Positions 2,217 to 52,415 are shown, numbered from the stretch's first letter. The stretch is DNA of 64,000 bases from Candidatus Dojkabacteria bacterium (GCA_014729085.1 WJKM01000016.1:36598-100597); one strand, 5' to 3'. Program-made: numbers and translations. The notes: a model not told the origin generated them from the sequence alone.

Positions 2217-2312
2217 AATATCTTAGTTTAAAATATAAGATACTTTCTTCGATTATAATTTATTGTATAAGTTTATACAAATTAGATATTACTCAATTCT
2301 TAAAAGTATTAT

Positions 2313-2696
2313 TAACCAATCCATAAGCCGCATTCTGTATCCCCCCGTTTTACAGGGTTGAGATAATCATTTGTCTATGCCCCCGTAAAACGGGGTTGCT
2401 CCAGGCAGGGATTACCTTGCTCACGTAAATTACTTCACGTGACGGTGTGCTCTTACCACACCCTTTCAGCCTTACCATGAAGTAAACTAGTCTACTTCAT
2501 GACGGTTTCCTCTCTGTTGCTCTGTACCGTAAATTTACATCTACCCAGCTTAGTTCCCGTACCATAAGGTAAAGGATTTATTCCTGGTGCCACTTTCCTC
2601 ATGTACAAGAAAGTACATGATTTTGGAGTGCGGACTTTCCTCCCTCCTTTATTCCGAGAAATCGGAATTTAGGAGAGCGATTATCCAGATTGGTAT
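2313..2696 (-). ncRNA. rnpB: RNase P RNA, bacterial type A
   Basis: The minus strand carries GAGGAAAGUCCGCACUCC (P4 5' strand), AACAGAGAGGAAACCG, GGUAAGGCUGAAAGGGUGUGGUAAGAGCACACCG and ACAGAAUGCGGCUUAUGG (P4 3' strand). The P4 pairing CCGCA/UGCGG covaries, and P1 is ACCAAUC/GAUUGGU. The island is GC-rich in an AT-rich genome. Confidence 0.85.
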
Positions 2697-10057: not shown

Positions 10058-10960
10058 TTAGTTTATTGTATCGCTATATACTGGTAAAAAATCAAATGTA
10101 TTAGTGAAAGTTTGATTTCCTTTGAAAATTTCGTTAATTTGTTCAGTATGCCAAATGAGAGTTTTTTCATATTGCCTCCATTCTTCCTTGCAATAAGTTA
10201 AGTTCGATTTATCGGCTTTACTTTCTAGCCGAAAAGCACAGTATTTATTCTGTTCAAAGTCTAAAGATTCAACAGTAAAAGGAAAAATAACTACATTACT
10301 ATCCTCAACAATATCAAAATTTACACTATTAATATCCGAATCCAAAGTCGCTATACAATATATGTTTTCTACCTGACCAAATTGGTCACGAGCATTTTTA
10401 TAGTTGTCTCTAAGCTGTAAACTGAAAATTTCATTTTTGCCTTCGAGAATAAAATATGTACGATGGAGGTACTCTCTGAGAATTAAAATAAATTTATAGC
10501 TGGATTTAATTTGATAATTTTTATCTAACAAACTAAGTTTACTTACTGAAAACTGCAGAATATCAGGTGGGAGTTTGAAAGAAAAGAAACCATCGGGGTT
10601 TGTTTCTGCTGTTAATAGGTTGTTACCAATTTCCAATTCAACAACGGAATTCGGAATAGACGTTCCTTCAAGATATTCGCGGTTTATATTGTCAAAAAAA
10701 ATGTATTGATTGGTTTGAATACCTGAGGATATTGATATTTGTTTTTCGTTCAGAGGTTCGTCTGCTTCGAAAAGAATGCGAGGTTTTTCTTCTTCGTCCT
10801 GGATTCCTAAAATTTTATTCTGATTATTGGTATCATTGGGTTTGCGAAACAGAACAAATTCAATAAATGCAAAATAAATTAGAAGTACAATTACAAATGA
10901 AATGATGATTGTAGCTAGATTTTCTGCTATTTTCTTGTTTTTTGGTTTGGAGTCCTCCAT
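10058..10960 (-). CDS. hypothetical membrane-anchored protein
   Basis: The 300-aa product has an N-terminal TM segment and I recognise no family. Confidence 0.45.
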   Translation of the reverse strand: MEDSKPKNKKIAENLATIIISFVIVLLIYFAFIEFVLFRKPNDTNNQNKILGIQDEEEKPRILFEADEPLNEKQISISSGIQTNQYIFFDNINREYLEGTSIPNSVVELEIGNNLLTAETNPDGFFSFKLPPDILQFSVSKLSLLDKNYQIKSSYKFILILREYLHRTYFILEGKNEIFSLQLRDNYKNARDQFGQVENIYCIATLDSDINSVNFDIVEDSNVVIFPFTVESLDFEQNKYCAFRLESKADKSNLTYCKEEWRQYEKTLIWHTEQINEIFKGNQTFTNTFDFLPVYSDTIN

Positions 10961-10967
10961 TATATTT

Positions 10968-11477
10968 CTAACTGATTATTTCATAAAGTAATACTGCACA
11001 AGAGGTTGTAACATTAAGGCTGGCTCCCTTGCCATACATTGGAATATAAACAGCTTTTTCCAATTTGGAGAGAGTTGTTTTTACTATACCGTACGTTTCA
11101 TTCCCAATTACTATACATGTTTTGTTTGGATAATCTAAATTTCGGTAGTTTTGAGATTCATCAGTTAGTTCAAGGCCGATTATTTGATAACCTTTCCGTT
11201 TGAGTTTGTTTATTGGTTTTCCTGAATGTTTGGAGTATTCCCAGTGCACTGATTTTTCTTTATTTCTCGAAACTTTGCGAAGTCCTTTCCCAAAAGGAGG
11301 TTTTCTAGATATACCCGTTAAAATTATTTTTTGTACTTTAACGGCATCTGCGATTCGGAAAAGACTAGCTACATTTTTTGCATATTGTACATTTTCAGCA
11401 ATAATAACTATATTTTTATTATGTTTTGATGTTTTTTTCTTAAAACGTTTTATTTCAGTTTTTGTAAGTTGTTTCAT
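10968..11477 (-). CDS. SpoU/TrmH-family RNA 2'-O-methyltransferase (SPOUT)
   Basis: It contains IVIGNETYG and YIPMYGKGASLNV motifs. The length is 169 aa. Confidence 0.65.
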   Translation of the reverse strand: MKQLTKTEIKRFKKKTSKHNKNIVIIAENVQYAKNVASLFRIADAVKVQKIILTGISRKPPFGKGLRKVSRNKEKSVHWEYSKHSGKPINKLKRKGYQIIGLELTDESQNYRNLDYPNKTCIVIGNETYGIVKTTLSKLEKAVYIPMYGKGASLNVTTSCAVLLYEIIS

Positions 11478-16835: not shown

Positions 16836-17222
16836 ATGGTTGAAACTAAGAAAATCTTGAAAATAATACTTATTGAAGAGGAACGAGAGGCTAGGGATGT
16901 GTATGGACAGATATTGAAAGATGCTGGATTCAAATACGATGAAGCTTCAGATGGAGGTGAAGCTGAAGAGAAATTAAAACAGAAAAAATATGATATTGTG
17001 ATTTTAGATGTTTTCCTTCCGATGAAAGATGGTTTAGAGGTTTTACAGGATATGAAGAAAGAACCAGATAAGTTTGGAACCCCAAGAGTAATTTTATTAA
17101 CAAATGTAGAAGGGGATTTTTTTAAAAAACGAGCTTTTGAATTAGGTGCAGATATGTATTTACTTAAAAGCCTTACAGAGCCGGAAGATTTGATAGAAGC
17201 AATAAATAGCTTAAAGAATTAA
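16836..17222 (+). CDS. standalone CheY-like response-regulator receiver domain
   Basis: The 128-aa product has the Asp57-equivalent (ILDV), the Lys109-equivalent (LLKS) and a conserved T/S. It has no output domain. Confidence 0.8.
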   Translation: MVETKKILKIILIEEEREARDVYGQILKDAGFKYDEASDGGEAEEKLKQKKYDIVILDVFLPMKDGLEVLQDMKKEPDKFGTPRVILLTNVEGDFFKKRAFELGADMYLLKSLTEPEDLIEAINSLKN

Positions 17223-17373: not shown

Positions 17374-17760
17374 ATGGGTGAGAATCAAAATTTAAAAATT
17401 CTTCTGGTAGAGGATGAACAGGATGCAAGAGAAATATATGCTGATATATTGGTTAATGGTGGTTTTGATGTAGATACTGCAGTAGATGGACAACAGGCAG
17501 AGGAAGAAATGAGTCAAAAAAAGTATGATATAATCCTTCTCGACATAATTACTCCACGTAAAGACGGAATACAAACTTTAGAGGAAATAAAAAGCAATCC
17601 TCAAAAGTATGGAACACCCAAAGTTGTAATGCTTTCCAATATTGCAGGAGATATTGCAATAGATAAGGCTATGGAACTTGGTGCAGATGGATATATGCTG
17701 AAAGCAGATGTGGATCCAGAGCAGTTGGTTGCGATGGTCAAGAAGTTTTTTGAAAAATAA
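17374..17760 (+). CDS. standalone CheY-like response-regulator receiver domain (paralog of 16836..17222)
   Basis: It reads LLVEDEQDA...LLDI...YMLKA and is about 45% identical to its neighbour. Confidence 0.8.
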   Translation: MGENQNLKILLVEDEQDAREIYADILVNGGFDVDTAVDGQQAEEEMSQKKYDIILLDIITPRKDGIQTLEEIKSNPQKYGTPKVVMLSNIAGDIAIDKAMELGADGYMLKADVDPEQLVAMVKKFFEK

Positions 17761-17848
17761 ATCTATCTTTTTATTATAACTTTCCAGATTCTTTTATGTT
17801 TATTTTTCGACAAGTTATTAGTTTTATGAATTTTATTACAAACTTATT

Positions 17849-18664
17849 TTAATAGATAAGATTGGTAATTTTAGATTTAAGAGCTTCGATATCATTAGTT
17901 ATTTCCTCAAAAATTTGTGCATTCCTAATTGTAATTGCAAGTTGATCTGTAAGTAAGGATAGAACTTTTTGTTCTTCTTGAGAGAATTCTTCTCTTATTC
18001 GTTTTGCAAAAAATGTGGCTCCAATTACTTTACAGTTATATTTCATAGGTAAGACAATACCGGCTTTAAAGCCTAGTATCTTAACAACACCTGAGGCAAC
18101 GTTTATTGGTAATACCCCTTTAATAATGTCTGTAAAATCAAAACTTTGGAAATTTTTTTGTTGAGTTATAGCTTTTACTACAAAATTTTCTTTATCTGTA
18201 CTAAGAGTGGCATATAATTCAGTAACTTTTTGGGGGAAAAGTTCCAAAACTTTTGGCATGCCTGGCATATTAGAAACAGTTTTACTATATACCTTGTCTG
18301 GATTATTTTGATCAATTAGAAAAATTATACCTCCATTATAATTAGGATACATATCAAACATTATATCTACAGCTGTTTGAAGCGTAGTATTTAAATCTAA
18401 ACATTTTGACACTCTGTTGATTGCAGATATTAGTTCCTCTGGAGTCAGAATATTAAGACCTAAAAGGTTAGCGATTTGAGAGGGTTTAAGTTTAAGAGCT
18501 TTAGCAATCTTTCCCAAGGTTCTTCTTGTAGGATTAATTTTCCCTGTTTCTATTCTACTTATACTTCCTGGTGATGCATTTATCTCTAATTCAAGCTCAA
18601 ATTGGGATAATTTTGCTTTATTACGATATTGCTTTATCTTTTTTCCAAGTTTATGTTTTTTCAT
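17849..18664 (-). CDS. HTH-XRE + GAF-domain transcriptional regulator (paralog 1)
   Basis: The N-terminus reads LSQFELELEINASPGSISRIETGKINPT, a Cro/C1-type HTH. The C-terminal ~170 aa are GAF-like and end in LTDQLAITIRNAQIFEE. Confidence 0.7.
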   Translation of the reverse strand: MKKHKLGKKIKQYRNKAKLSQFELELEINASPGSISRIETGKINPTRRTLGKIAKALKLKPSQIANLLGLNILTPEELISAINRVSKCLDLNTTLQTAVDIMFDMYPNYNGGIIFLIDQNNPDKVYSKTVSNMPGMPKVLELFPQKVTELYATLSTDKENFVVKAITQQKNFQSFDFTDIIKGVLPINVASGVVKILGFKAGIVLPMKYNCKVIGATFFAKRIREEFSQEEQKVLSLLTDQLAITIRNAQIFEEITNDIEALKSKITNLIY

Positions 18665-18965
18665 CTGATTAATCTAAGAATTAAGAGTTCATATTTTGCT
18701 TATAGCATATTTTGGAAAACTGAACATTGTATTGGAATACAATGCGAAAGAATTATACTATAAGGTTTATGATTGTTTCAAAATCGAGCTAATATATACT
18801 TAGTTTTTGAGGGGGTATATAACGAAATAGAATTAATAAGAAGTTTATAATATAGGCTGAGTTTTTACTCTTCCCTTAGTGATATATATTCTACTCAAGT
18901 GTCTAGTATATTCTAATTATGAGAAGATTTATATTTACTTTTACTTAAAGAAGTTTACGCCTTTT
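18665..18965. repeat. ~300-bp intergenic repeat, copy A, containing the palindrome CATTGTATTggAATACAATG at 18725..18744
   Basis: It is about 85-90% identical to 20456..20765, and both copies lie immediately 5' of an XRE-GAF gene. Confidence 0.7.
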
Positions 18966-19644
18966 TATAGATAAGTGCTTTTTGAATTGATATTGATATT
19001 TGTTTTGTAACTAATTGTAATACCTTTTTTTCAGAAGAAAAGTCATCTTTGATTTTTTTGACATAAACTATTGCCCCGAAAGGTTTCTTGCCCGTAGCCA
19101 ATGGATATATGATATTACTTTGATCTCCTGATACTTCCTGTATTTTATCTGCGACTTTACGTGAAAATGCGGGCATTCTATATTCTCTAGTAAAATAGGT
19201 TACATAAACCCGATTTTCATTAATTGATTTTACAGTCAAATTGTTTAAATCTTTTTCAAGGGAAAGTTCAAACTTATCCAATGGCTCTTCTAGACATGCA
19301 AGTACTTTTTCCCCAATATTGCTATTTGTAAAAGCTGCAACTTTAACTATGTTGTTTTCAACTAAAAATAATGCAGAGGCAAGGTATCCCAATCGAAAGA
19401 TTAATTCATTGACTACGTTATTAAGTATAAACTTAAGGTCATTTGATAAGATGAGTTTTGTTGTAATCTTAAAGATCGATGTTAAATCCTTTAGATCGAC
19501 TCCAAAAAGCGAGGCTATATCGTAAGTGTCTAATTTTAAGGCCCTAGCTATGTTTATAATGGTTTCTTTAGTAGGATTTACTTTTCCATTCTCAATCCTG
19601 CTAATACTACCTGGAGAAGCCCCTATTTCCAGTTCGAGTTCCAT
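18955..19644 (-). CDS. HTH-XRE + GAF regulator (paralog 2) lacking a canonical start codon
   Basis: The first ATG gives MELELEIGASPGSISRIENGKVNPT. The in-frame sequence upstream (KITRINNRLNNGLSQ) aligns with the paralogs but runs into a stop without any ATG/GTG/TTG. The only possible starts are ATA or ATT codons that overlap the end of paralog 3. Confidence 0.55.
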   Translation of the reverse strand: MELELEIGASPGSISRIENGKVNPTKETIINIARALKLDTYDIASLFGVDLKDLTSIFKITTKLILSNDLKFILNNVVNELIFRLGYLASALFLVENNIVKVAAFTNSNIGEKVLACLEEPLDKFELSLEKDLNNLTVKSINENRVYVTYFTREYRMPAFSRKVADKIQEVSGDQSNIIYPLATGKKPFGAIVYVKKIKDDFSSEKKVLQLVTKQISISIQKALIYKKA

Positions 19645-19666
19645 TTGGCTTAAGCCGTTGTTGAGT

Positions 19667-20455
19667 CTATTGTTTATCCTGGTAATTTTTTAATTCGTTT
19701 TTAAGATCCTCATATTTTTTTGCATTATCAATAGCGGTAGCAAGAGTATCTGTAAATATCTCTAAAATCTTATATTCAGCTTGAAAATCATCAATATAAT
19801 TTTTACCAAAATAAATGGCACCTAAACTATTGCCATTCCTAGAAATTATTGGAAAAATTATTCCCGATTTTACAGTAGAGACTTTTTCTAGTAGTTTGGA
19901 GACTCTAGGAGTAACAAAAGGGACTGCTATATCACTTAAATCAGTAGAAAGAAAAGTGCGTTGTTCTAATATTGCACGAATCATATAGTTTTCTTTTGCA
20001 TCTTTTATTGCTACGTTTAATTTATTAAAAGCTGTAGGCATTACTTTCATGGCAAGGGAAGTATACCAAGTTTGAGTAAAAGTTTGTCCCCATACCCTAT
20101 CTTCTTTTTTTATATCTATTAAAGCACCAAGTAAGTTTAATTCATATGCTATTTCGTTTACAGAATCTTGTAACACCTTTTCTAGACGTAAGCTACTCAT
20201 AAAATTTTTTGATACTTCAAGGATTTTTGCTAGTTTTTTTTGATTTAGATTATATAATTGTGCTATTTCTAGAGCATTTAAATCAAGACAATCAATAATT
20301 TTTAGTAATGTTTCCTTTGTAGGATTTACTTTGCCTGTTTCTATTCTACTTATGCTACCTGGAGATGCCTCAATTTCTAGCTCTAGATCCATTTGAGATA
20401 ACTTAGCTCTTTTTCTATATATTTTAATTTTTTCCCCAAGTCTGTAATTTTTCAT
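19667..20455 (-). CDS. HTH-XRE + GAF regulator (paralog 3)
   Basis: The N-terminus reads MKNYRLGEKIKIYRKRAKLSQMDLELEIEASPGSISRIETGKVNPT and is followed by a GAF-like C-terminal domain. Confidence 0.7.
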   Translation of the reverse strand: MKNYRLGEKIKIYRKRAKLSQMDLELEIEASPGSISRIETGKVNPTKETLLKIIDCLDLNALEIAQLYNLNQKKLAKILEVSKNFMSSLRLEKVLQDSVNEIAYELNLLGALIDIKKEDRVWGQTFTQTWYTSLAMKVMPTAFNKLNVAIKDAKENYMIRAILEQRTFLSTDLSDIAVPFVTPRVSKLLEKVSTVKSGIIFPIISRNGNSLGAIYFGKNYIDDFQAEYKILEIFTDTLATAIDNAKKYEDLKNELKNYQDKQ

Positions 20456-20765
20456 ATTTTAAAATAAGAATTTAACTACTTTTGCTTATAACATAAAGCC
20501 AAAACCTTCTTCATTGTATTAGAATACAAATTTAATAAATTATACTATGAGATTTACAGCTGTTTCAATATTGAACTGGTATATAGTTGCCTTGTTTTTG
20601 GGGGGTAGGGAGATGGCTTTTGTCGTAAGCTTATAATATAGGCTGGGTTTTTATTCTTCCCTTAGTAATATATATTCTGCTAAAGTGTATAGAAAATTCC
20701 AATTATGAGAAGATTTATATTTACTTTTACTTAAAGAAGTTTTCGCCTTTTGTATATAGTTTTTA
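20456..20765. repeat. ~300-bp intergenic repeat, copy B, containing the palindrome CATTGTATTagAATACAAAT at 20511..20530
   Basis: See copy A. Its distal ~110 bp also encode the C-terminal 25-30 aa of the annotated polyprenyl synthase ORF. Confidence 0.7.
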
Positions 20766-21745
20766 CACAACTTTATTGAATAATCTAATGAATTAGTTTG
20801 CTTGATTATTGTTCTAACTTTATTAGCTTCAGTTAGAGTTAAATTTTTTCTCCCATAAAGTTCATTTAAAATATTTTTTTGTTTTTTATCGGAATTTTTT
20901 AAAGCATGTAGTATTAGAAGTGTCTTCTTTCCCTCTTCTATATCAGAGTTAATCGGTTTTCCTAATTTTTCTTCATTTCCAAACATTCCAAGGATATCAT
21001 CCCTAATTTGGAAAGCAATTCCAGCATTCTTGGCGTACTCTGTAAGAATAATAAGTTCGTTTTGTTCTGCACCTCCAAGCAAGGCTCCTGTATAAATTGG
21101 GAGTTCAAACGTATAAGTAGCGGTTTTTAACTCGTGAATTTTTATTATATCTTCTTCGGTATATTTAGTTGATTTACTTGTTATCACATCAAAGATTTGT
21201 CCTGCTCCTACATCTGCAAGCTTTTTATATGCATAGTCTATAAATTTAAGTTTTAACTTTGGATCAAAGTTTGTTTCGGTTAAAAGTTGTATGGGAAATA
21301 TACTAATTAAATCACCACCTAGGATTGCTAAATTTCTACCAAAATCGGCTTGATCTTTGAAATTATATTTACTGGCTAATTTTTCATACATTTTATGAAA
21401 GGTAGGGCCCCCTCTTCTTAAATCATCATGATCTGTAATATCGTCATGAATCAGTAACCAGCTCTGTATTAATTCAATAAAAATAGATAATTTATATATA
21501 TCCTCTAGATTCTCAGAATTGAATAAATTATATGAGTTAATCATTAAAGCAGCTCTTATTCTTTTTCCTCCTCTTAAAGTATATTCTTCTAACATATTTA
21601 CCATAGTCCTTATTGGTTTTGGGTATTCTAAGAATAAATAGTTATTTTTATTAAAGAAGTTTTTTATTTCTTTATTAATTATAGATTGGAAATCTTTAAG
21701 TAGCTTGTTATTTTTCATTAATAGGTTTAAAAAAATTAACTTCAA
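20651..21745 (-). CDS. trans-polyprenyl diphosphate synthase (IspA/GGPPS family)
   Basis: LLIHDDITDHDDLRRGGPTFH is the first DDxxD motif with GxPTxH, and FQIRDDILG is the second Asp-rich motif. The C-terminal tail may be an over-extension into the repeat. Confidence 0.8.
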   Translation of the reverse strand: MKLIFLNLLMKNNKLLKDFQSIINKEIKNFFNKNNYLFLEYPKPIRTMVNMLEEYTLRGGKRIRAALMINSYNLFNSENLEDIYKLSIFIELIQSWLLIHDDITDHDDLRRGGPTFHKMYEKLASKYNFKDQADFGRNLAILGGDLISIFPIQLLTETNFDPKLKLKFIDYAYKKLADVGAGQIFDVITSKSTKYTEEDIIKIHELKTATYTFELPIYTGALLGGAEQNELIILTEYAKNAGIAFQIRDDILGMFGNEEKLGKPINSDIEEGKKTLLILHALKNSDKKQKNILNELYGRKNLTLTEANKVRTIIKQTNSLDYSIKLCKNYIQKAKTSLSKSKYKSSHNWNFLYTLAEYILLREE

Positions 21746-21799
21746 GAATATTAATTGATATACTGGATAATAATTATATTATATTTATAAAAAGATAAA

Positions 21800-22693
21800 A
21801 TGAAATCTCAAGAAGCAACTTCACAAGTAGTATCATTTTATAGGCAAAGTATTTCGCAGAATCTGAAAATCATAAAAAAGATATTAAAGACATTTGAGAT
21901 TGATGATGAACCAATAACAACAACAAGTCAAGATATTTTAACAGATTCTTCAAAACTTATCTCATCAAAGTGGCTAGAAGAAAGAAAATATTTAAGAAGT
22001 AACTTTATTCTTGAAGGATTTGGAGAATTGTATCCAACTTCAATTCTTCAGCTTTCAGTTAACATTGATGCAATGATTAATATATTAGACGACTTACTTG
22101 ATGAGAATATCAATAATGAGATCAAAACATTATATATTTTTGAATTCTTAAGAATTTTTTCTATCTACTCATATAAATCTAAGAAGATTGAAATAAATGA
22201 TTTAATGGGAAATTATATTAATAAATTGATTACTTTAGCAGTTTCAGAATCATATTATCTAAAACAAATAAAAAATAACCTAGATTTAGAATATGTTATG
22301 CAAGCATCAATTAAAACTCTGACTTTAAGATCTTTAGACATAGATGTTTTTGTAGAGTTGGTAATGCAAACTTTAGGTATATATGATAAAAATGAATTCA
22401 ATATAATTCGCATGAGTTCAAGATTATTTAGAGCGGTAAATATTTTAAAAAAAGACATTGATGATATAGATTATGATATTAAGAATGAGCAGGAAACTTT
22501 GGTGACTTATATAAAACTAACTTCAAAATTTAATTATTGTGATTATGTAACTAATTTGTGTGAATATTATATAAAACAGATGGATAACCTATCTGAGAAA
22601 TATAATTCTAAAAATAAGAGAGTAATACTTCCAATTAAAAATTTTCAACATATGTTAAATAAAGATATTAAAATTATCAAGAATAGTATTTAA
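21800..22693 (+). CDS. hypothetical all-helical protein with a DDLLDE (DDxxD/E) motif; possibly an isoprenoid-synthase-like enzyme
   Basis: The 297-aa product contains NIDAMINILDDLLDEN. It is divergently transcribed from the polyprenyl synthase. I recognise no family. Confidence 0.4.
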   Translation: MKSQEATSQVVSFYRQSISQNLKIIKKILKTFEIDDEPITTTSQDILTDSSKLISSKWLEERKYLRSNFILEGFGELYPTSILQLSVNIDAMINILDDLLDENINNEIKTLYIFEFLRIFSIYSYKSKKIEINDLMGNYINKLITLAVSESYYLKQIKNNLDLEYVMQASIKTLTLRSLDIDVFVELVMQTLGIYDKNEFNIIRMSSRLFRAVNILKKDIDDIDYDIKNEQETLVTYIKLTSKFNYCDYVTNLCEYYIKQMDNLSEKYNSKNKRVILPIKNFQHMLNKDIKIIKNSI

Positions 22694-22720: not shown

Positions 22721-25039
22721 ATGATTACTAGTTATGCATTAATAAGTAAAATTCTGGTATTTTTTATTAATGTTCTGGGTATTAGTTTAACAATCACAGT
22801 TGTTGCAAGTAGAGCAAAAAAACGCCTAAAAACAATCTTCAGTATTATGACTTTTTTAATGTTTATTTGGGTTGATTTTGCTTTTCAGGCTCGTTTAGCC
22901 GAACAATCAGAATTAGCTTTAGACTTTATACGAATTGCATGGTCAATTACCCCTTTTTTATTTATTCTGATCTATACATTTATAATTCTATTTTTAGAAC
23001 AAGAAAGAAAACATAGAATTTTAACATCTATACTTTACTTTATTGGTTTCATTTTTTTAGTTATAACTTTATTTACAGATTTTATTATTAGCGATATTTT
23101 ATTTGAAGATGGGATATTAAATATCGTTTACGGGGATTTGGTTTGGTTTTTCTTTGGTATAGTTGCCGTTCTTACAGTAATAAATTTTTATTTACTCTTT
23201 AAAGAATATAATAAAGATAAACTCAGTATTGAAAAAAAGAAAAATATTCAGTATCTCTTATGGGGTTTAACATTTTTCTTTGCTATGAATGCTATTTTTA
23301 ATATAGCATTACCGGTTTTTTTTAGAATAGTTCATTTATATGAATTTGGAGATTATTCAACCATAATATTTCTTTCAATTATTGCATTTATTATTGTCCA
23401 GAGAAATTTACTTGGAATTAAAGTGATGGGTTCAGCATTTATAGTAAGTTTTTTAGGAAGTTTTCTATTGCTTGATACATTACTTTATAGTTCATCCCTA
23501 GACCAAAGATTAAGTAAATTATTAATATTATTAATTTATGTTCCTTTTGCTTATTTCCTTATACAAAGTGTTTTGAATGAAATTAGACAACGTGAATTAT
23601 TAGCAAAAAGCAACCGAGAATTATCTGCTAGAAACCACGAACTTGATACCTTATTTAGAATTACAAATGAAATTGTGACTACCCTGGATGCAAAGGTAGT
23701 TGCACAGAGAGCATCTAATTTGGTTGCAGAGGAAATGGGATATATTGGTGCTGCAATTATTAGTAAAAATAAGACTACAACTAGAAATGAATTTTTATCG
23801 TTAACCGAACATAATGTAAGAGATAAGATATTCAATTTCATGATGGAAGAGGAGTATCAATGTAGTACTGATCATAGAAGTAAATATAAGGATATACCAA
23901 TTAATGAGAATAATTTTGTTATAAGTGAGAGTTTAGATGAAGCACTACCAATTCTAATGCCGGATGAGGATCAAGCAAAAGAGATCCAAAAATTATTGGG
24001 AATAAGACTTATTATAAATGCACCAATTAAAGTACAAAATGAAATAATTGGTCTGGTTTCATTTTTTCTGGCTAAGGAAAGTGAGGAAGAGATTACAAGC
24101 AGGGAATTCGATATGATGCAGACCTTTGCATTCCAGGTAGGCATTGGATTGGAAAATGCTAGATTGTTTAAGGAGTTAGAAGAACTTTCAAAAACGCTTG
24201 CAGAAAAGAATTTACAGTTAGAGGAATATGCCAAGAAAGAGAAAGATATTCTAGACATTATGGGCCATGAGCTTAGAACACCAATTACAATAGTCAGGAA
24301 TTCACTGGCTTTCTTAAAGACACTTGCGAAGAGGGGAGAGGTAAAACCTGGAAAATTAAATCATTATATCGATGTAGCCTTAAGATCGGCTAGAAGAGAA
24401 ATCAATATTATCGAAACAATGTTGTCCGCAACCAAGGTAGAAGGAGGTAAAATAGAAATATTTAGAACAAAGGTTGATTCCAAAGATGTAATAGATGAGG
24501 CTGTGATTGGACAACGAGAAAATATTAAGGCAAAAGATTTGGAACTTAATCTCGAGATTCCCGAAAACATTCCACCTATTTATGCAGATAGATCTAGAGT
24601 ACAGGAGATAATTGATAACTTTTTAAGCAATGCAGTTAAATATACCAAAGAGGGAAGTGTTACCATTAAAGCTGAAGAAAAAGGATCCTCGGTACAGTTT
24701 AGTATAATTGATACCGGATATGGAATGACAGACGAACAGATTGAGAGACTGGGTACAAAATTCTATAGAGTTAAACAACATGTAAACGATGACAAACAGA
24801 GACTTTATAATGTCGTAAGGCCTGGAGGGACTGGACTTGGATTATATGTTACCTTTAATTTGGTTAAATTGCATGGTGGTAAAGTTGAAGTAGAGAGTGA
24901 AGAAGGGAAGGGCTCTACTTTCAAGTTCACTATTCCTAAATATATTGGCCAGGAGTCTGAAGTTGATGATGCAAAATCTAAGGATCTACTTCAAGAATAT
25001 AGAAAGAAAAGAAAGGGAGATCAGGTTTCTGATCAGTAG
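22721..25039 (+). CDS. sensor histidine kinase (multi-TM N-terminal domain, GAF-like region, HisKA + HATPase_c)
   Basis: There are 6-7 N-terminal TM helices. The H-box is MGHELRTPIT and the N/G boxes are NAVKYT and GTGLGLYV. Confidence 0.85.
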   Translation: MITSYALISKILVFFINVLGISLTITVVASRAKKRLKTIFSIMTFLMFIWVDFAFQARLAEQSELALDFIRIAWSITPFLFILIYTFIILFLEQERKHRILTSILYFIGFIFLVITLFTDFIISDILFEDGILNIVYGDLVWFFFGIVAVLTVINFYLLFKEYNKDKLSIEKKKNIQYLLWGLTFFFAMNAIFNIALPVFFRIVHLYEFGDYSTIIFLSIIAFIIVQRNLLGIKVMGSAFIVSFLGSFLLLDTLLYSSSLDQRLSKLLILLIYVPFAYFLIQSVLNEIRQRELLAKSNRELSARNHELDTLFRITNEIVTTLDAKVVAQRASNLVAEEMGYIGAAIISKNKTTTRNEFLSLTEHNVRDKIFNFMMEEEYQCSTDHRSKYKDIPINENNFVISESLDEALPILMPDEDQAKEIQKLLGIRLIINAPIKVQNEIIGLVSFFLAKESEEEITSREFDMMQTFAFQVGIGLENARLFKELEELSKTLAEKNLQLEEYAKKEKDILDIMGHELRTPITIVRNSLAFLKTLAKRGEVKPGKLNHYIDVALRSARREINIIETMLSATKVEGGKIEIFRTKVDSKDVIDEAVIGQRENIKAKDLELNLEIPENIPPIYADRSRVQEIIDNFLSNAVKYTKEGSVTIKAEEKGSSVQFSIIDTGYGMTDEQIERLGTKFYRVKQHVNDDKQRLYNVVRPGGTGLGLYVTFNLVKLHGGKVEVESEEGKGSTFKFTIPKYIGQESEVDDAKSKDLLQEYRKKRKGDQVSDQ

Positions 25040-30794: not shown

Positions 30795-30865
30795 TCGGGG
30801 ATCGTCTAATGGTAGGACAACGGCCTCTGAAGCCGTTAATCTTAGTTCGAATCTAAGTCCCCGAA
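30795..30865 (+). tRNA. tRNA-Gln (anticodon CUG)
   Basis: The cloverleaf has acceptor TCGGGGA/TCCCCGA, D-stem GTCT/GGAC, anticodon stem ACGGC/GCCGT with loop CTCTGAA, and T-arm CTTAG-TTCGAAT-CTAAG. CCA is not encoded. Confidence 0.8.
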
Positions 30866-51725: not shown

Positions 51726-51797
51726 AGCGAGCAACGGGAATCGAACCCGTATCCTCAGTTTGGAAAACTGATATAATAGCCGTTATACTATGCTCGC
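51726..51797 (-). tRNA. tRNA-Gly (anticodon UCC)
   Basis: On the minus strand the acceptor is GCGAGCA/TGCTCGC, the anticodon stem is TCAGT/ACTGA with loop TTTCCAA, the T-arm is ACGGG-TTCGATT-CCCGT, and U73 is the discriminator. Confidence 0.75.
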
Positions 51798-52100: not shown

Positions 52101-52364
52101 ATGTATTATGTATACTTATTGATAAATAAGAAAAAGAGTTACAAATACGTTGGTATTACTAAAGATATTAAGAAAAGATTAAGAGATCATAACCAAGGAA
52201 AGACCAGATCTACAAAACCATATAGACCATTTGATAAAATAATAATTTTAGATAAATTAGAAAGTCGAAAAGAAGCAAGAGAAAGAGAGAAATATTTTAA
52301 GTCTGCAACAGGAAGAAAGAAAAGAGAATTAATATTAAATACGGAGCGTAGTTCAGTTGGCTAG
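52101..52364 (+). CDS. small GIY-YIG nuclease-family protein (YhbQ/UPF0213-like)
   Basis: MYYVYLLINKKKSYKYVGITKDIKKRLRDHNQG has the GIY-YIG core with Arg and Glu downstream. The 3' end and stop codon (TAG) lie inside the 5' end of tRNA-Pro. Confidence 0.65.
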   Translation: MYYVYLLINKKKSYKYVGITKDIKKRLRDHNQGKTRSTKPYRPFDKIIILDKLESRKEAREREKYFKSATGRKKRELILNTERSSVG

Positions 52365-52415
52365 AACGCACGGTTTGGGACCGTGAGGTCATCGGTTCAA
52401 GTCCGATCGCTCCGA
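52342..52415 (+). tRNA. tRNA-Pro (anticodon UGG)
   Basis: The acceptor is CGGAGCG/CGCTCCG (a C1:G72 pair) and the D-arm is GTTC-AGTTGGCTA-GAAC. The anticodon arm is CACGG-TTTGGGA-CCGTG and the T-arm is ATCGG-TTCAAGT-CCGAT. A73 is the discriminator. Confidence 0.85.

Follow-up and report, generated by a model that had tools for sequence, protein, structure and literature searches.

What has been duplicated at a locus where three regulator genes stand head to tail and a palindrome recurs upstream of two of them, and what might that palindrome do? The locus lies between positions 17,849 and 20,765 of a 64,000-nucleotide stretch of DNA (GCA_014729085.1 WJKM01000016.1:36598-100597), here called the window, from a genome of Candidatus Dojkabacteria (Candidate Phyla Radiation, CPR; formerly WS6) with a GC content of about 30%. 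A first-pass annotation had read it as a recent segmental duplication of a ligand-sensing regulator module with a likely autoregulatory operator. The comparisons described below point to a different picture, namely an old array in which a promoter was copied at a later time and the middle gene, P2, was clipped, with regulator dimers that would activate transcription from a site found throughout the lineage. Taken as a whole we hold this picture with about even confidence. The genes concerned are the following.

17849-18664, minus strand: P1, 271 amino acids, XRE(HTH_3)-GAF regulator (open reading frame, ORF; HTH_3 E 1.9e-11)
18955-19644, minus strand: P2, XRE-GAF regulator shortened at both ends, 229 amino acids when read from the ATG at 19642-19644
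19667-20455, minus strand: P3, 262 amino acids, XRE-GAF regulator, first in the array (HTH_3 E 5.6e-11)
20651-21745, minus strand: polyprenyl synthase gene, encoding a trans-polyprenyl (GGPP/FPP-type) diphosphate synthase (Pfam polyprenyl_synt E 8.7e-60; NCBIfam GGPP_syn-like), directly upstream of the array

The three paralogs were thus correctly placed on one strand by the first-pass annotation, and their Cro/C1-type helix-turn-helix (HTH) domain is equally clear: Pfam HTH_3 (PF01381) scores 44.3 bits in P1, 44.3 in P2 and 42.8 in P3 against a cut-off of 23 (E about 1e-11). The GAF-like domain that had been proposed for the C-terminal part is marginal by sequence, with 22.1 bits for P1 on GAF_2 (under the 28.6 cut-off), 28.7 bits for P3 on the GAF-like DUF3369 (above the 27.2 cut-off) and no GAF-clan Pfam match for P2, and many regulator orthologs bear a precomputed PF13185 annotation. 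The fold was put forward earlier as a test of the reading, and the test comes out in favor of GAF. P1 as modeled by AlphaFold (13 homologs, pLDDT 83.7) has a five-helix HTH (helices 3-16, 21-27, 34-39, 47-56 and 61-67), a linker helix and an alpha/beta domain, and when the latter was compared with the PDB by Foldseek the top 50 matches were all GAF domains or GAF-clan folds such as fRMsr and the HD-GYP sensor domain (E down to 2e-7, prob 1.0, TM(target) about 0.7; 5w10, 3ci6 and 3oov among the matches). Similarly, a profile of the regulator family matches the GAF chains 3o5y, 8w26 and 1ykd as well as structures of HipB, SinR, PlcR and P22 C2, the PlcR match (E 3e-4) spanning HTH and linker. 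P1, P2 and P3 are therefore predicted to be Cro/C1-HTH plus GAF one-component regulators.

These proteins stay below the cut-off of every NCBIfam model, so they do not belong to a named family, and a search of the accessible literature on the XRE plus GAF combination returned nothing specific. Membership of the type II antitoxins (HipB/MqsA-like XRE proteins) was considered and rejected, as the NCBIfam antitoxin models score far under their cut-offs (e.g., 40.5 vs. 71.65) and the neighbors are paralogs and isoprenoid enzymes, not toxins. The RRNPP group (PlcR/Rgg/PrgX) was rejected as well, the C-terminal domain being GAF and not a TPR-type peptide-binding domain. The nearest relatives are found in Dojkabacteria and allied CPR genomes. 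About 1,000 clusters at 50% identity are matched (E<=1e-30), and about half of the best 150 matches are proteins of 250-270 amino acids.

Sequence comparison argues that the three regulators represent three distinct orthologous subfamilies of long standing. In the GAF domain they share 22-28% identity among themselves and 50-52% with orthologs elsewhere (about 45-50% for the P3 GAF domain), which leaves the proposed recent duplication of the regulator module unsupported. The orthologs of P1 (46-56% identical) are the last array genes in L001 and L003, two of the related loci or contigs compared with the window (labeled L001 etc.), and P1 can be assigned on this basis to a "last gene of the array" subfamily. 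For P2 there are many orthologs, 50-57% identical and about 256 amino acids long. Tandem arrays of 2-5 such genes, packed tightly or overlapping in related contigs, were found in L001, L003, L007, L008, L011, L012, L018, L021 and L028, and are the rule in Dojkabacteria. That the entire regulator-plus-operator module was copied recently, with an operator private to this locus, is consistent with the clear homology of the two upstream regions, but it is made highly improbable by paralogs that are less alike than orthologs, by similarity confined to the 300-bp upstream piece, by the age of the arrays and by the wide occurrence of the motif described below. The HTH domains are 62-67% identical among the window paralogs and 63-75% identical to orthologs; concerted evolution of these domains within the genome was considered, and the two ranges give no clear signal of it.

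The copied piece is an upstream region.

18665-18965, minus strand: promoter module copy A, before P1, in place of the native 3' end of P2
20456-20751, minus strand: promoter module copy B, the apparent parent, composed of the genuine polyprenyl synthase 3' end and the intergenic DNA ahead of P3
18865-18965, minus strand: polyprenyl synthase relic, the last ~33 codons, about 91% identical to 20651-20751, in the P2 frame, with three stop codons

Global alignment of the two regions scores 137 vs. -11 +/- 6.5 for shuffles, and the repeat of about 300 bp reported earlier is real. Its identity had been put at 85-90%; it is 72% overall (230/320 alignment columns), and only the distal ~125 bp reach about 91% (18841-18965 vs. 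20627-20751), with 56-72% per 25-column block outside that part and 75% between 18725-18801 and 20512-20588. The distal boundary is sharp (18965/20751), and copy B does reach into the synthase ORF (20651-20751), as had been noticed. Because the true synthase 3' end stands in copy B, while copy A holds a decayed relic with stop codons, copy B appears to be parental and copy A to have been placed between P2 and P1, clipping P2. The promoter piece alone would then be young, i.e., a promoter and not a gene was recently duplicated. The protein database contains no close relative of the source genome, the best P1 and P2 homologs being 56-57% identical. No Rfam family matches the repeat region, and no intrinsic terminator was found within 17700-21900.

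P2 carries marks of loss at both ends. It is short of about 10 C-terminal residues present in orthologs, and its final 3 codons and stop derive from the duplicated segment. P2 had been described as lacking any canonical start. There is an ATG at 19642-19644, 22 nucleotides (nt) past the P3 stop, and the NCBI gene model (P0012) uses the same start to give 229 amino acids; the description does hold for the 15 codons upstream of this ATG, which still show homology to HTH helix 1 and offer none of the starts ATG, GTG and TTG before a TAA (19690-19692) closes the frame.

19645-19689, minus strand: degenerate HTH helix 1 remnant, KITRINNRLNNGLSQ, 15 in-frame codons before the P2 ATG

The remnant has a two-residue insertion and overlaps, in the +1 frame, the last 8 codons of P3; read from its ATG, P2 is without helix 1 and the first residue of helix 2. 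It nevertheless keeps 70 of the 85 residues that are invariant in eight orthologs, at least as large a share as the 73% that a leave-one-out test gives for P0032, a full-length ortholog from Dojkabacteria. In addition, its 244 codons form an uninterrupted frame in DNA that is AT-rich. Either selection still maintains P2, therefore, or the gene was disabled not long ago. Judged from its sequence it probably makes a 229-residue GAF protein with a crippled DNA-binding domain. Truncated or split family members occur in other arrays too (L009, L018, L028 and L041). A run of six A (19684-19693; minus strand TTAAAAAATT) is found where the P2 frame (+1) opens within the end of P3 and is probably the scar of a deletion. 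A +1 frameshift on this run that would fuse P3 to P2 fits the frames, but no double-module protein exists among the relatives, and the ATG so soon after the P3 stop disfavors it further; we consider it very improbable.

Both copies of the upstream region hold a palindrome followed by a -10-like element, as well as a second promoter-like sequence before it.

18727-18742: palindrome A, TTGTATTCCAATACAA on the gene strand; 9+9 form at 18725-18744; center about -42.5 from the inferred transcription start site
20514-20529: palindrome B, TTGTATTCTAATACAA on the gene strand; center about -43.5
18699-18707, minus strand: extended -10-like element TGCTATAAG, 22 nt after palindrome A
20485-20493, minus strand: extended -10-like element TGTTATAAG, 23 nt after palindrome B
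18752-18781, minus strand: sigma-70 promoter TTGAAA-18-TATAAT (11/12), upstream of palindrome A
20539-20568, minus strand: sigma-70 promoter-like TTGAAA-18-TATAAT (11/12), upstream of palindrome B

The full palindrome, CATTGTATT-nn-AATACAATG, is perfect in copy A, as the first-pass annotation had it, and keeps 7 of 9 arm positions in copy B, where 8 of 9 had been counted. The core common to both copies, TTGTATTnnAATACAA, with 7-bp arms (18727-18742 and 20514-20529), occurs exactly at these two places only within the window, and a weight matrix built from 19 sites in other genomes likewise gives scores of 10 bits or higher at these two window positions only, copy A reaching 14-18 bits and copy B 29 bits. 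Its presence at other loci had been set as a test, and there are many. In a search set of 776 kb, comprising the window and related loci, TTGTAY-N4-RTACAA occurs 21 times vs. about 0.6 expected (0-3 in shuffles). All 21 sites are intergenic and oriented, with flanks aAAAT...TG and the consensus TTGTATTGCAATACAA. A match to TATAAT (5/6 or better) lies exactly 22 nt past the 16-mer in 13 of the 21 and at 21-23 nt in 18, other offsets accounting for at most 2 sites each and the antisense side being without a comparable peak; no conserved -35 element was found between palindrome and -10 across the sites. In the window, TGCTATAAG and TGTTATAAG are part of a 16-nt block conserved between both copies. 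When the -10 hexamer is set at -12 to -7, the center of the palindrome falls at about -42.5, which would be the position of a class II activator, with the palindrome replacing the -35 box. Class II geometry is known from CRP and FNR at -41.5 and from lambda CI at -42.

The palindrome therefore appears to be the local instance of a lineage-wide 16-bp promoter element that serves many genes in several bacterial lineages. Genes behind other sites include those for an M48 peptidase, an FGE-sulfatase together with LpxC, GreA, and an LGFP-repeat (surface) protein. In two genomes (L011 at 17111 and L018 at 14573) the motif-promoter stands before the same FGE-sulfatase-like and LpxC pair; LpxC comes as a surprise in a CPR genome, as these bacteria are generally assumed to have no lipid A. 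A search of the accessible literature for a regulator or motif of Dojkabacteria or Patescibacteria found nothing specific. The motif resembles the E. coli LexA box, CTGTAT-N4-ATACAG. An SOS box was nevertheless rejected, as the regulator family is without an S24 domain, the downstream genes are not DNA repair genes, and the spacing is fixed to the promoter.

It is conceivable that the palindrome acts in RNA, forming a hairpin at the 5' end of transcripts that start at the upstream promoter, with a role in stability or attenuation. Copy A does fold well (-8 kcal/mol, z = -6.8), but copy B (-2.5 kcal/mol, z = 0.17) is no better than its shuffles, the fixed spacing to the downstream -10 points to a role at the DNA level, and the absence of an Rfam match in the region does not help; such a role seems scarcely credible to us. 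In contigs of 41-48% GC the motif-promoter lies within a longer repeated cassette, ...ctctattttcccggaaat-TTGTATTGCAATACAATG-caatttttataaatagatgttataaataaccgggataaatgttgttgga..., several copies per contig, with a conserved leader of about 30-60 nt after the -10. Loci with the cassette are L013 (5100-5300), L069 and L098 (two copies each) and L120 (10840-10960), and further L051, L052, L056, L067, L079, L083-L085, L087, L092, L108, L111 and L116. The cassette may encode small RNAs of one family or provide a common 5' untranslated region; Rfam gave no match in L013 or L069, the two loci searched.

The nearest candidates for a protein that reads the palindrome are the products of the array itself. 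Both motif sites of the window stand before family genes (P1 and P3), and sites are found directly upstream of arrays in L006, L012, L018, L020, L074, L096 and the window, and directly downstream of family genes or of a GAF kinase in L007, L008, L013, L015 and L080. When metagenomes were scanned for TTGTATTGCAATACAATG alone, 10 of 70 loci had a family gene within about 170 nt, and around half of the 70 matches look like chance, lying inside unrelated coding DNA. P2-type orthologs also occur in genomes that clearly are not Dojkabacteria (L120, 45% GC; L121, 61% GC), and in both the AT-rich motif, its -10 at offset 22, lies no further than about 100-150 nt behind the P2-type gene. In L121 (GCA_054014435.1, 61% GC, non-CPR; 10775-10975) the ortholog is followed by an AT-rich promoter made of TTGTATTGCAACACAATG and TGCTATATAT, behind which lies a 225-residue ORF without a Pfam family. 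Regulator and target thus seem, from these sequences, to travel together across lineages.

Variation in the site appears to be paralleled by variation in the protein. Family HTH domains are conserved uniformly, with G33, S36, R37 and E39 invariant and a recognition helix SPGS[IL]SRIE common to all subfamilies, and this uniform conservation suggests that all subfamilies read one DNA site. Seven of eight genes with an upstream TTGTAY site carry ASPGS[IM]SRIE. Variant palindromes at the same offset from TATAAT accompany divergent family members that have changed residues beside the recognition helix: TTGCGC-TGCA-GCGCAA pairs with ASQGS in L001 and TTGCGT-TCTA-ACGCAA with LSFGTLS in L045 and L048, and a third variant, TTGTAA-TGCA-TTACAA, is found in L039. 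Given that the motif stands beside family genes even at 45% and 61% GC, and that variant palindromes are found at divergent members, the XRE-GAF proteins are its likely binders, and the palindrome very probably is a protein-binding site for autoregulation of these genes. To this extent the autoregulatory operator proposed earlier is supported; the motif being lineage-wide, an operator specific to this locus is not. Upstream of the arrays in L007 (9883-9906) and L008 (9886-9912) the TTGTAT motif is replaced by a long palindrome of different sequence, AAACTATAT...ATATAGTTT, and the canonical motif stands after the kinase gene of the same loci; the long palindrome may be a second type of operator.

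With regard to the sign of regulation, a site about 22 bp upstream of the -10 fits activation better than classical repression. Since the palindrome stands in for the -35 box, centered at about -42.5 and varying by no more than +/-1 bp in its spacing, we favor, by analogy, ligand-dependent activation with positive autoregulation. Lambda CI at PRM and PlcR at its boxes share this geometry. The course of events may be pictured as follows. The old tandem array of three different Cro/C1-HTH plus GAF subfamilies is a standing feature of Dojkabacteria genomes. A piece with the last ~100 bp of the polyprenyl synthase gene and the array promoter would then have been copied in front of P1, cutting the 3' end of P2 and giving P1 a promoter of its own. 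XRE-GAF dimers would bind the palindrome and, with ligand loaded in the GAF domain, recruit RNA polymerase in the way of lambda CI at PRM or PlcR at its box. The outcome would be positive autoregulation of P3-P2 and of P1, together with control of a scattered regulon. As TTGAAA-18-TATAAT would start transcription at the edge of the palindrome, this consensus-like upstream promoter would presumably be blocked by the same binding event, which makes repression a live alternative or an added layer.

Several findings weigh against the picture as drawn. First, the -10 elements of the window read TATAAG, without the usual final T, and the two TTGAAA-18-TATAAT sites are the best sigma-70 matches of the region; this better match (11/12) puts the palindrome at +1 to +20, a repressor-type position. 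The same proteins could accordingly be repressors: on the palindrome they would occupy both the -35 zone of the downstream promoter and, at the upstream one, +1 to +20, shutting both until a ligand releases them, as in classical negative autoregulation. The 11/12 promoter directly upstream of both palindromes agrees with this, as does the behavior of most characterized XRE proteins, which repress (HipB, SinR, DicA and RstR, the closest structures and models), and extended -10 promoters can fire without a -35 box. But the spacing to the -10 varies by no more than +/-1 bp among genes and species, a trait typical of activators, which have to touch RNA polymerase, and not of repressors, and in L012 and L018 the motif begins 3 nt past the synthase stop codon, where there is no room for an upstream promoter. 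We consider repression in place of activation rather unlikely. Second, the covariation of site and protein amounts to three independent variant sites, and L006 (AAFGS with TTGTAC) fits no simple code. Third, many arrays are without a canonical motif upstream (L003, L007, L008, L011, L016, L017, L021 and L028), and most motif sites precede genes unrelated to the regulator family. These last observations, and a site density of about 1 per 37 kb, would be in agreement with some other global factor, i.e., another transcription factor or a sigma-associated protein, binding the palindrome, with the XRE-GAF genes as members of its regulon. Such a factor does not readily explain why the motif follows the P2-type gene into genomes of 45% and 61% GC, why variant palindromes precede divergent family members, why the only two sites in the 64-kb window are both at family genes, or why HTH and motif are both unusually invariant, and we regard it as a lesser possibility, although one to be taken seriously. 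Fourth, the identity of the upstream repeat is uneven (about 91% distal, 56-72% per block proximal), so that one simple duplication is insufficient; the distal part must have undergone later gene conversion, or the repeat goes back to two separate events.

Activation by XRE-GAF dimers would have precedents, and both the XRE plus GAF architecture and the palindrome at -42.5 are uncharacterized variants of known principles, one-component regulators and class II promoters, respectively. One close parallel is offered by lambda CI, 434 and P22 C2 at PRM. They share the HTH class (Pfam HTH_3, with the P22 C2 structure matched), a palindrome, centered at about -42, on which a dimer sits at the promoter of its own gene (predicted here), and the possibility of positive autoregulation while a neighboring promoter is blocked. 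The sensor is a GAF domain here and an S24-type cleavable dimerization domain there, the genes described here are chromosomal with many target promoters whereas those are phage genes, and the half-sites have TTGT..ACAA outside, the reverse of the ACAA..TTGT of 434. PlcR and the RRNPP proteins similarly have an XRE HTH followed by a large ligand-binding domain, and a palindromic box in the place of the -35 with autoregulation and a dispersed regulon, as is inferred here. They differ in having TPR in place of GAF; the ligand here is probably a small molecule and not a peptide, and no peptide or exporter genes adjoin the array. CodY of Firmicutes also combines a GAF sensor with a DNA-binding domain and acts at many promoters through a palindromic, AT-rich box some 15-16 bp long, but it has the opposite domain order and a winged HTH, is mainly a repressor with flexible site position, and no sequence relationship with the regulators was detected. 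The XRE-cupin proteins of Pseudomonas (PMC7901475) and MmyB-like proteins resemble the array products in joining an N-terminal XRE HTH to a C-terminal small-molecule sensor and in being encoded often beside the metabolic genes they respond to. Their sensor is cupin or PAS-like and not GAF, they are local repressors, and no lineage-wide site embedded in promoters has been described for them.

Almost nothing is known of transcription control in the uncultivated CPR bacteria with their tiny genomes. The locus provides a regulatory code that is directly testable, namely a near-invariant 16-bp palindrome at a fixed distance from the -10 and a candidate XRE-GAF family to read it, one that is expanded in Dojkabacteria and linked with isoprenoid enzymes and a GAF sensor kinase. 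If the link between motif and regulator holds, regulons become readable from metagenome-assembled genomes, and the ligand of the GAF domain, possibly a terpenoid, becomes a tractable question. The window alone tells a more modest story, that of an old paralog array of which the promoter was recently duplicated and one member clipped at both ends.

The gene context suggests that the GAF domains may respond to an isoprenoid-related molecule. The genes next to the array are the following.

21800-22693, plus strand: ORF of 297 amino acids, no Pfam family, predicted isoprenoid-synthase alpha fold
22721-25039, plus strand: seven-transmembrane (7TM)-GAF-HisKA-HATPase sensor kinase (Pfam; family HMM match E 7e-15)
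16836-17222 and 17374-17760, plus strand: two stand-alone receiver-domain proteins (Pfam Response_reg E 9e-23 and 1e-21)

A recurrent gene order is found in the related loci: polyprenyl synthase, XRE-GAF array, an enzyme that is terpene synthase-like, UbiA or a cyclase, and a GAF histidine kinase. The synthase is directly upstream of the array in the window, L007, L008, L011, L012 and L018, and the enzyme of the cluster is UbiA in L005, L007, L011 and L018, a Terpene_syn_C_2 protein in L003, squalene-hopene-cyclase-like in L008, and a weak DUF2600 match in L001. In the window the 297-residue ORF and the 7TM-GAF kinase are divergent from the synthase, an arrangement that one inversion of the synthase-P3-P2-P1 block would explain. 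The GAF domain of the sensor kinase is homologous to that of the regulators. The receiver-domain proteins, which have no output domain, are adjacent to and convergent with P1, and may possibly be partners of this kinase.

The AlphaFold model of the 297-residue protein is confident and all-alpha (pLDDT 93.7), and the protein has at least 55 homologs in Patescibacteria and no Pfam or NCBIfam family. Foldseek matches are weak (E 0.015-1), and almost all of them are prenyl or terpene synthases. It carries an invariant DDxxD and a second Asp-rich motif, K217 K218 D219..D222..D226, the residues D97, D98, D101, D219, D222 and D226 being invariant. From model and motifs it is possibly a member of an undescribed terpene synthase-like family; direct similarity to the L003 terpene synthase was not found (BLASTP E 0.19). 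It is tempting to speculate that the cluster is a terpenoid-based signaling system of CPR bacteria, in which the enzymes make an isoprenoid signal, the differently diverged GAF domains of regulators and kinase sense the signal or its precursors and the regulators activate some tens of promoters through the palindrome at -42.5, although we would call this improbable on present evidence. If true, it would liken the system to PlcR-type quorum sensing, but with a lipid-like small molecule and a GAF receptor.

The only known RNA families found in the window are ordinary RNA genes outside the repeat.

2309-2696, minus strand: RNase P RNA (class A, 149 bits)
30795-30865, plus strand: tRNA gene
51726-51797, minus strand: tRNA gene
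52342-52415, plus strand: tRNA gene

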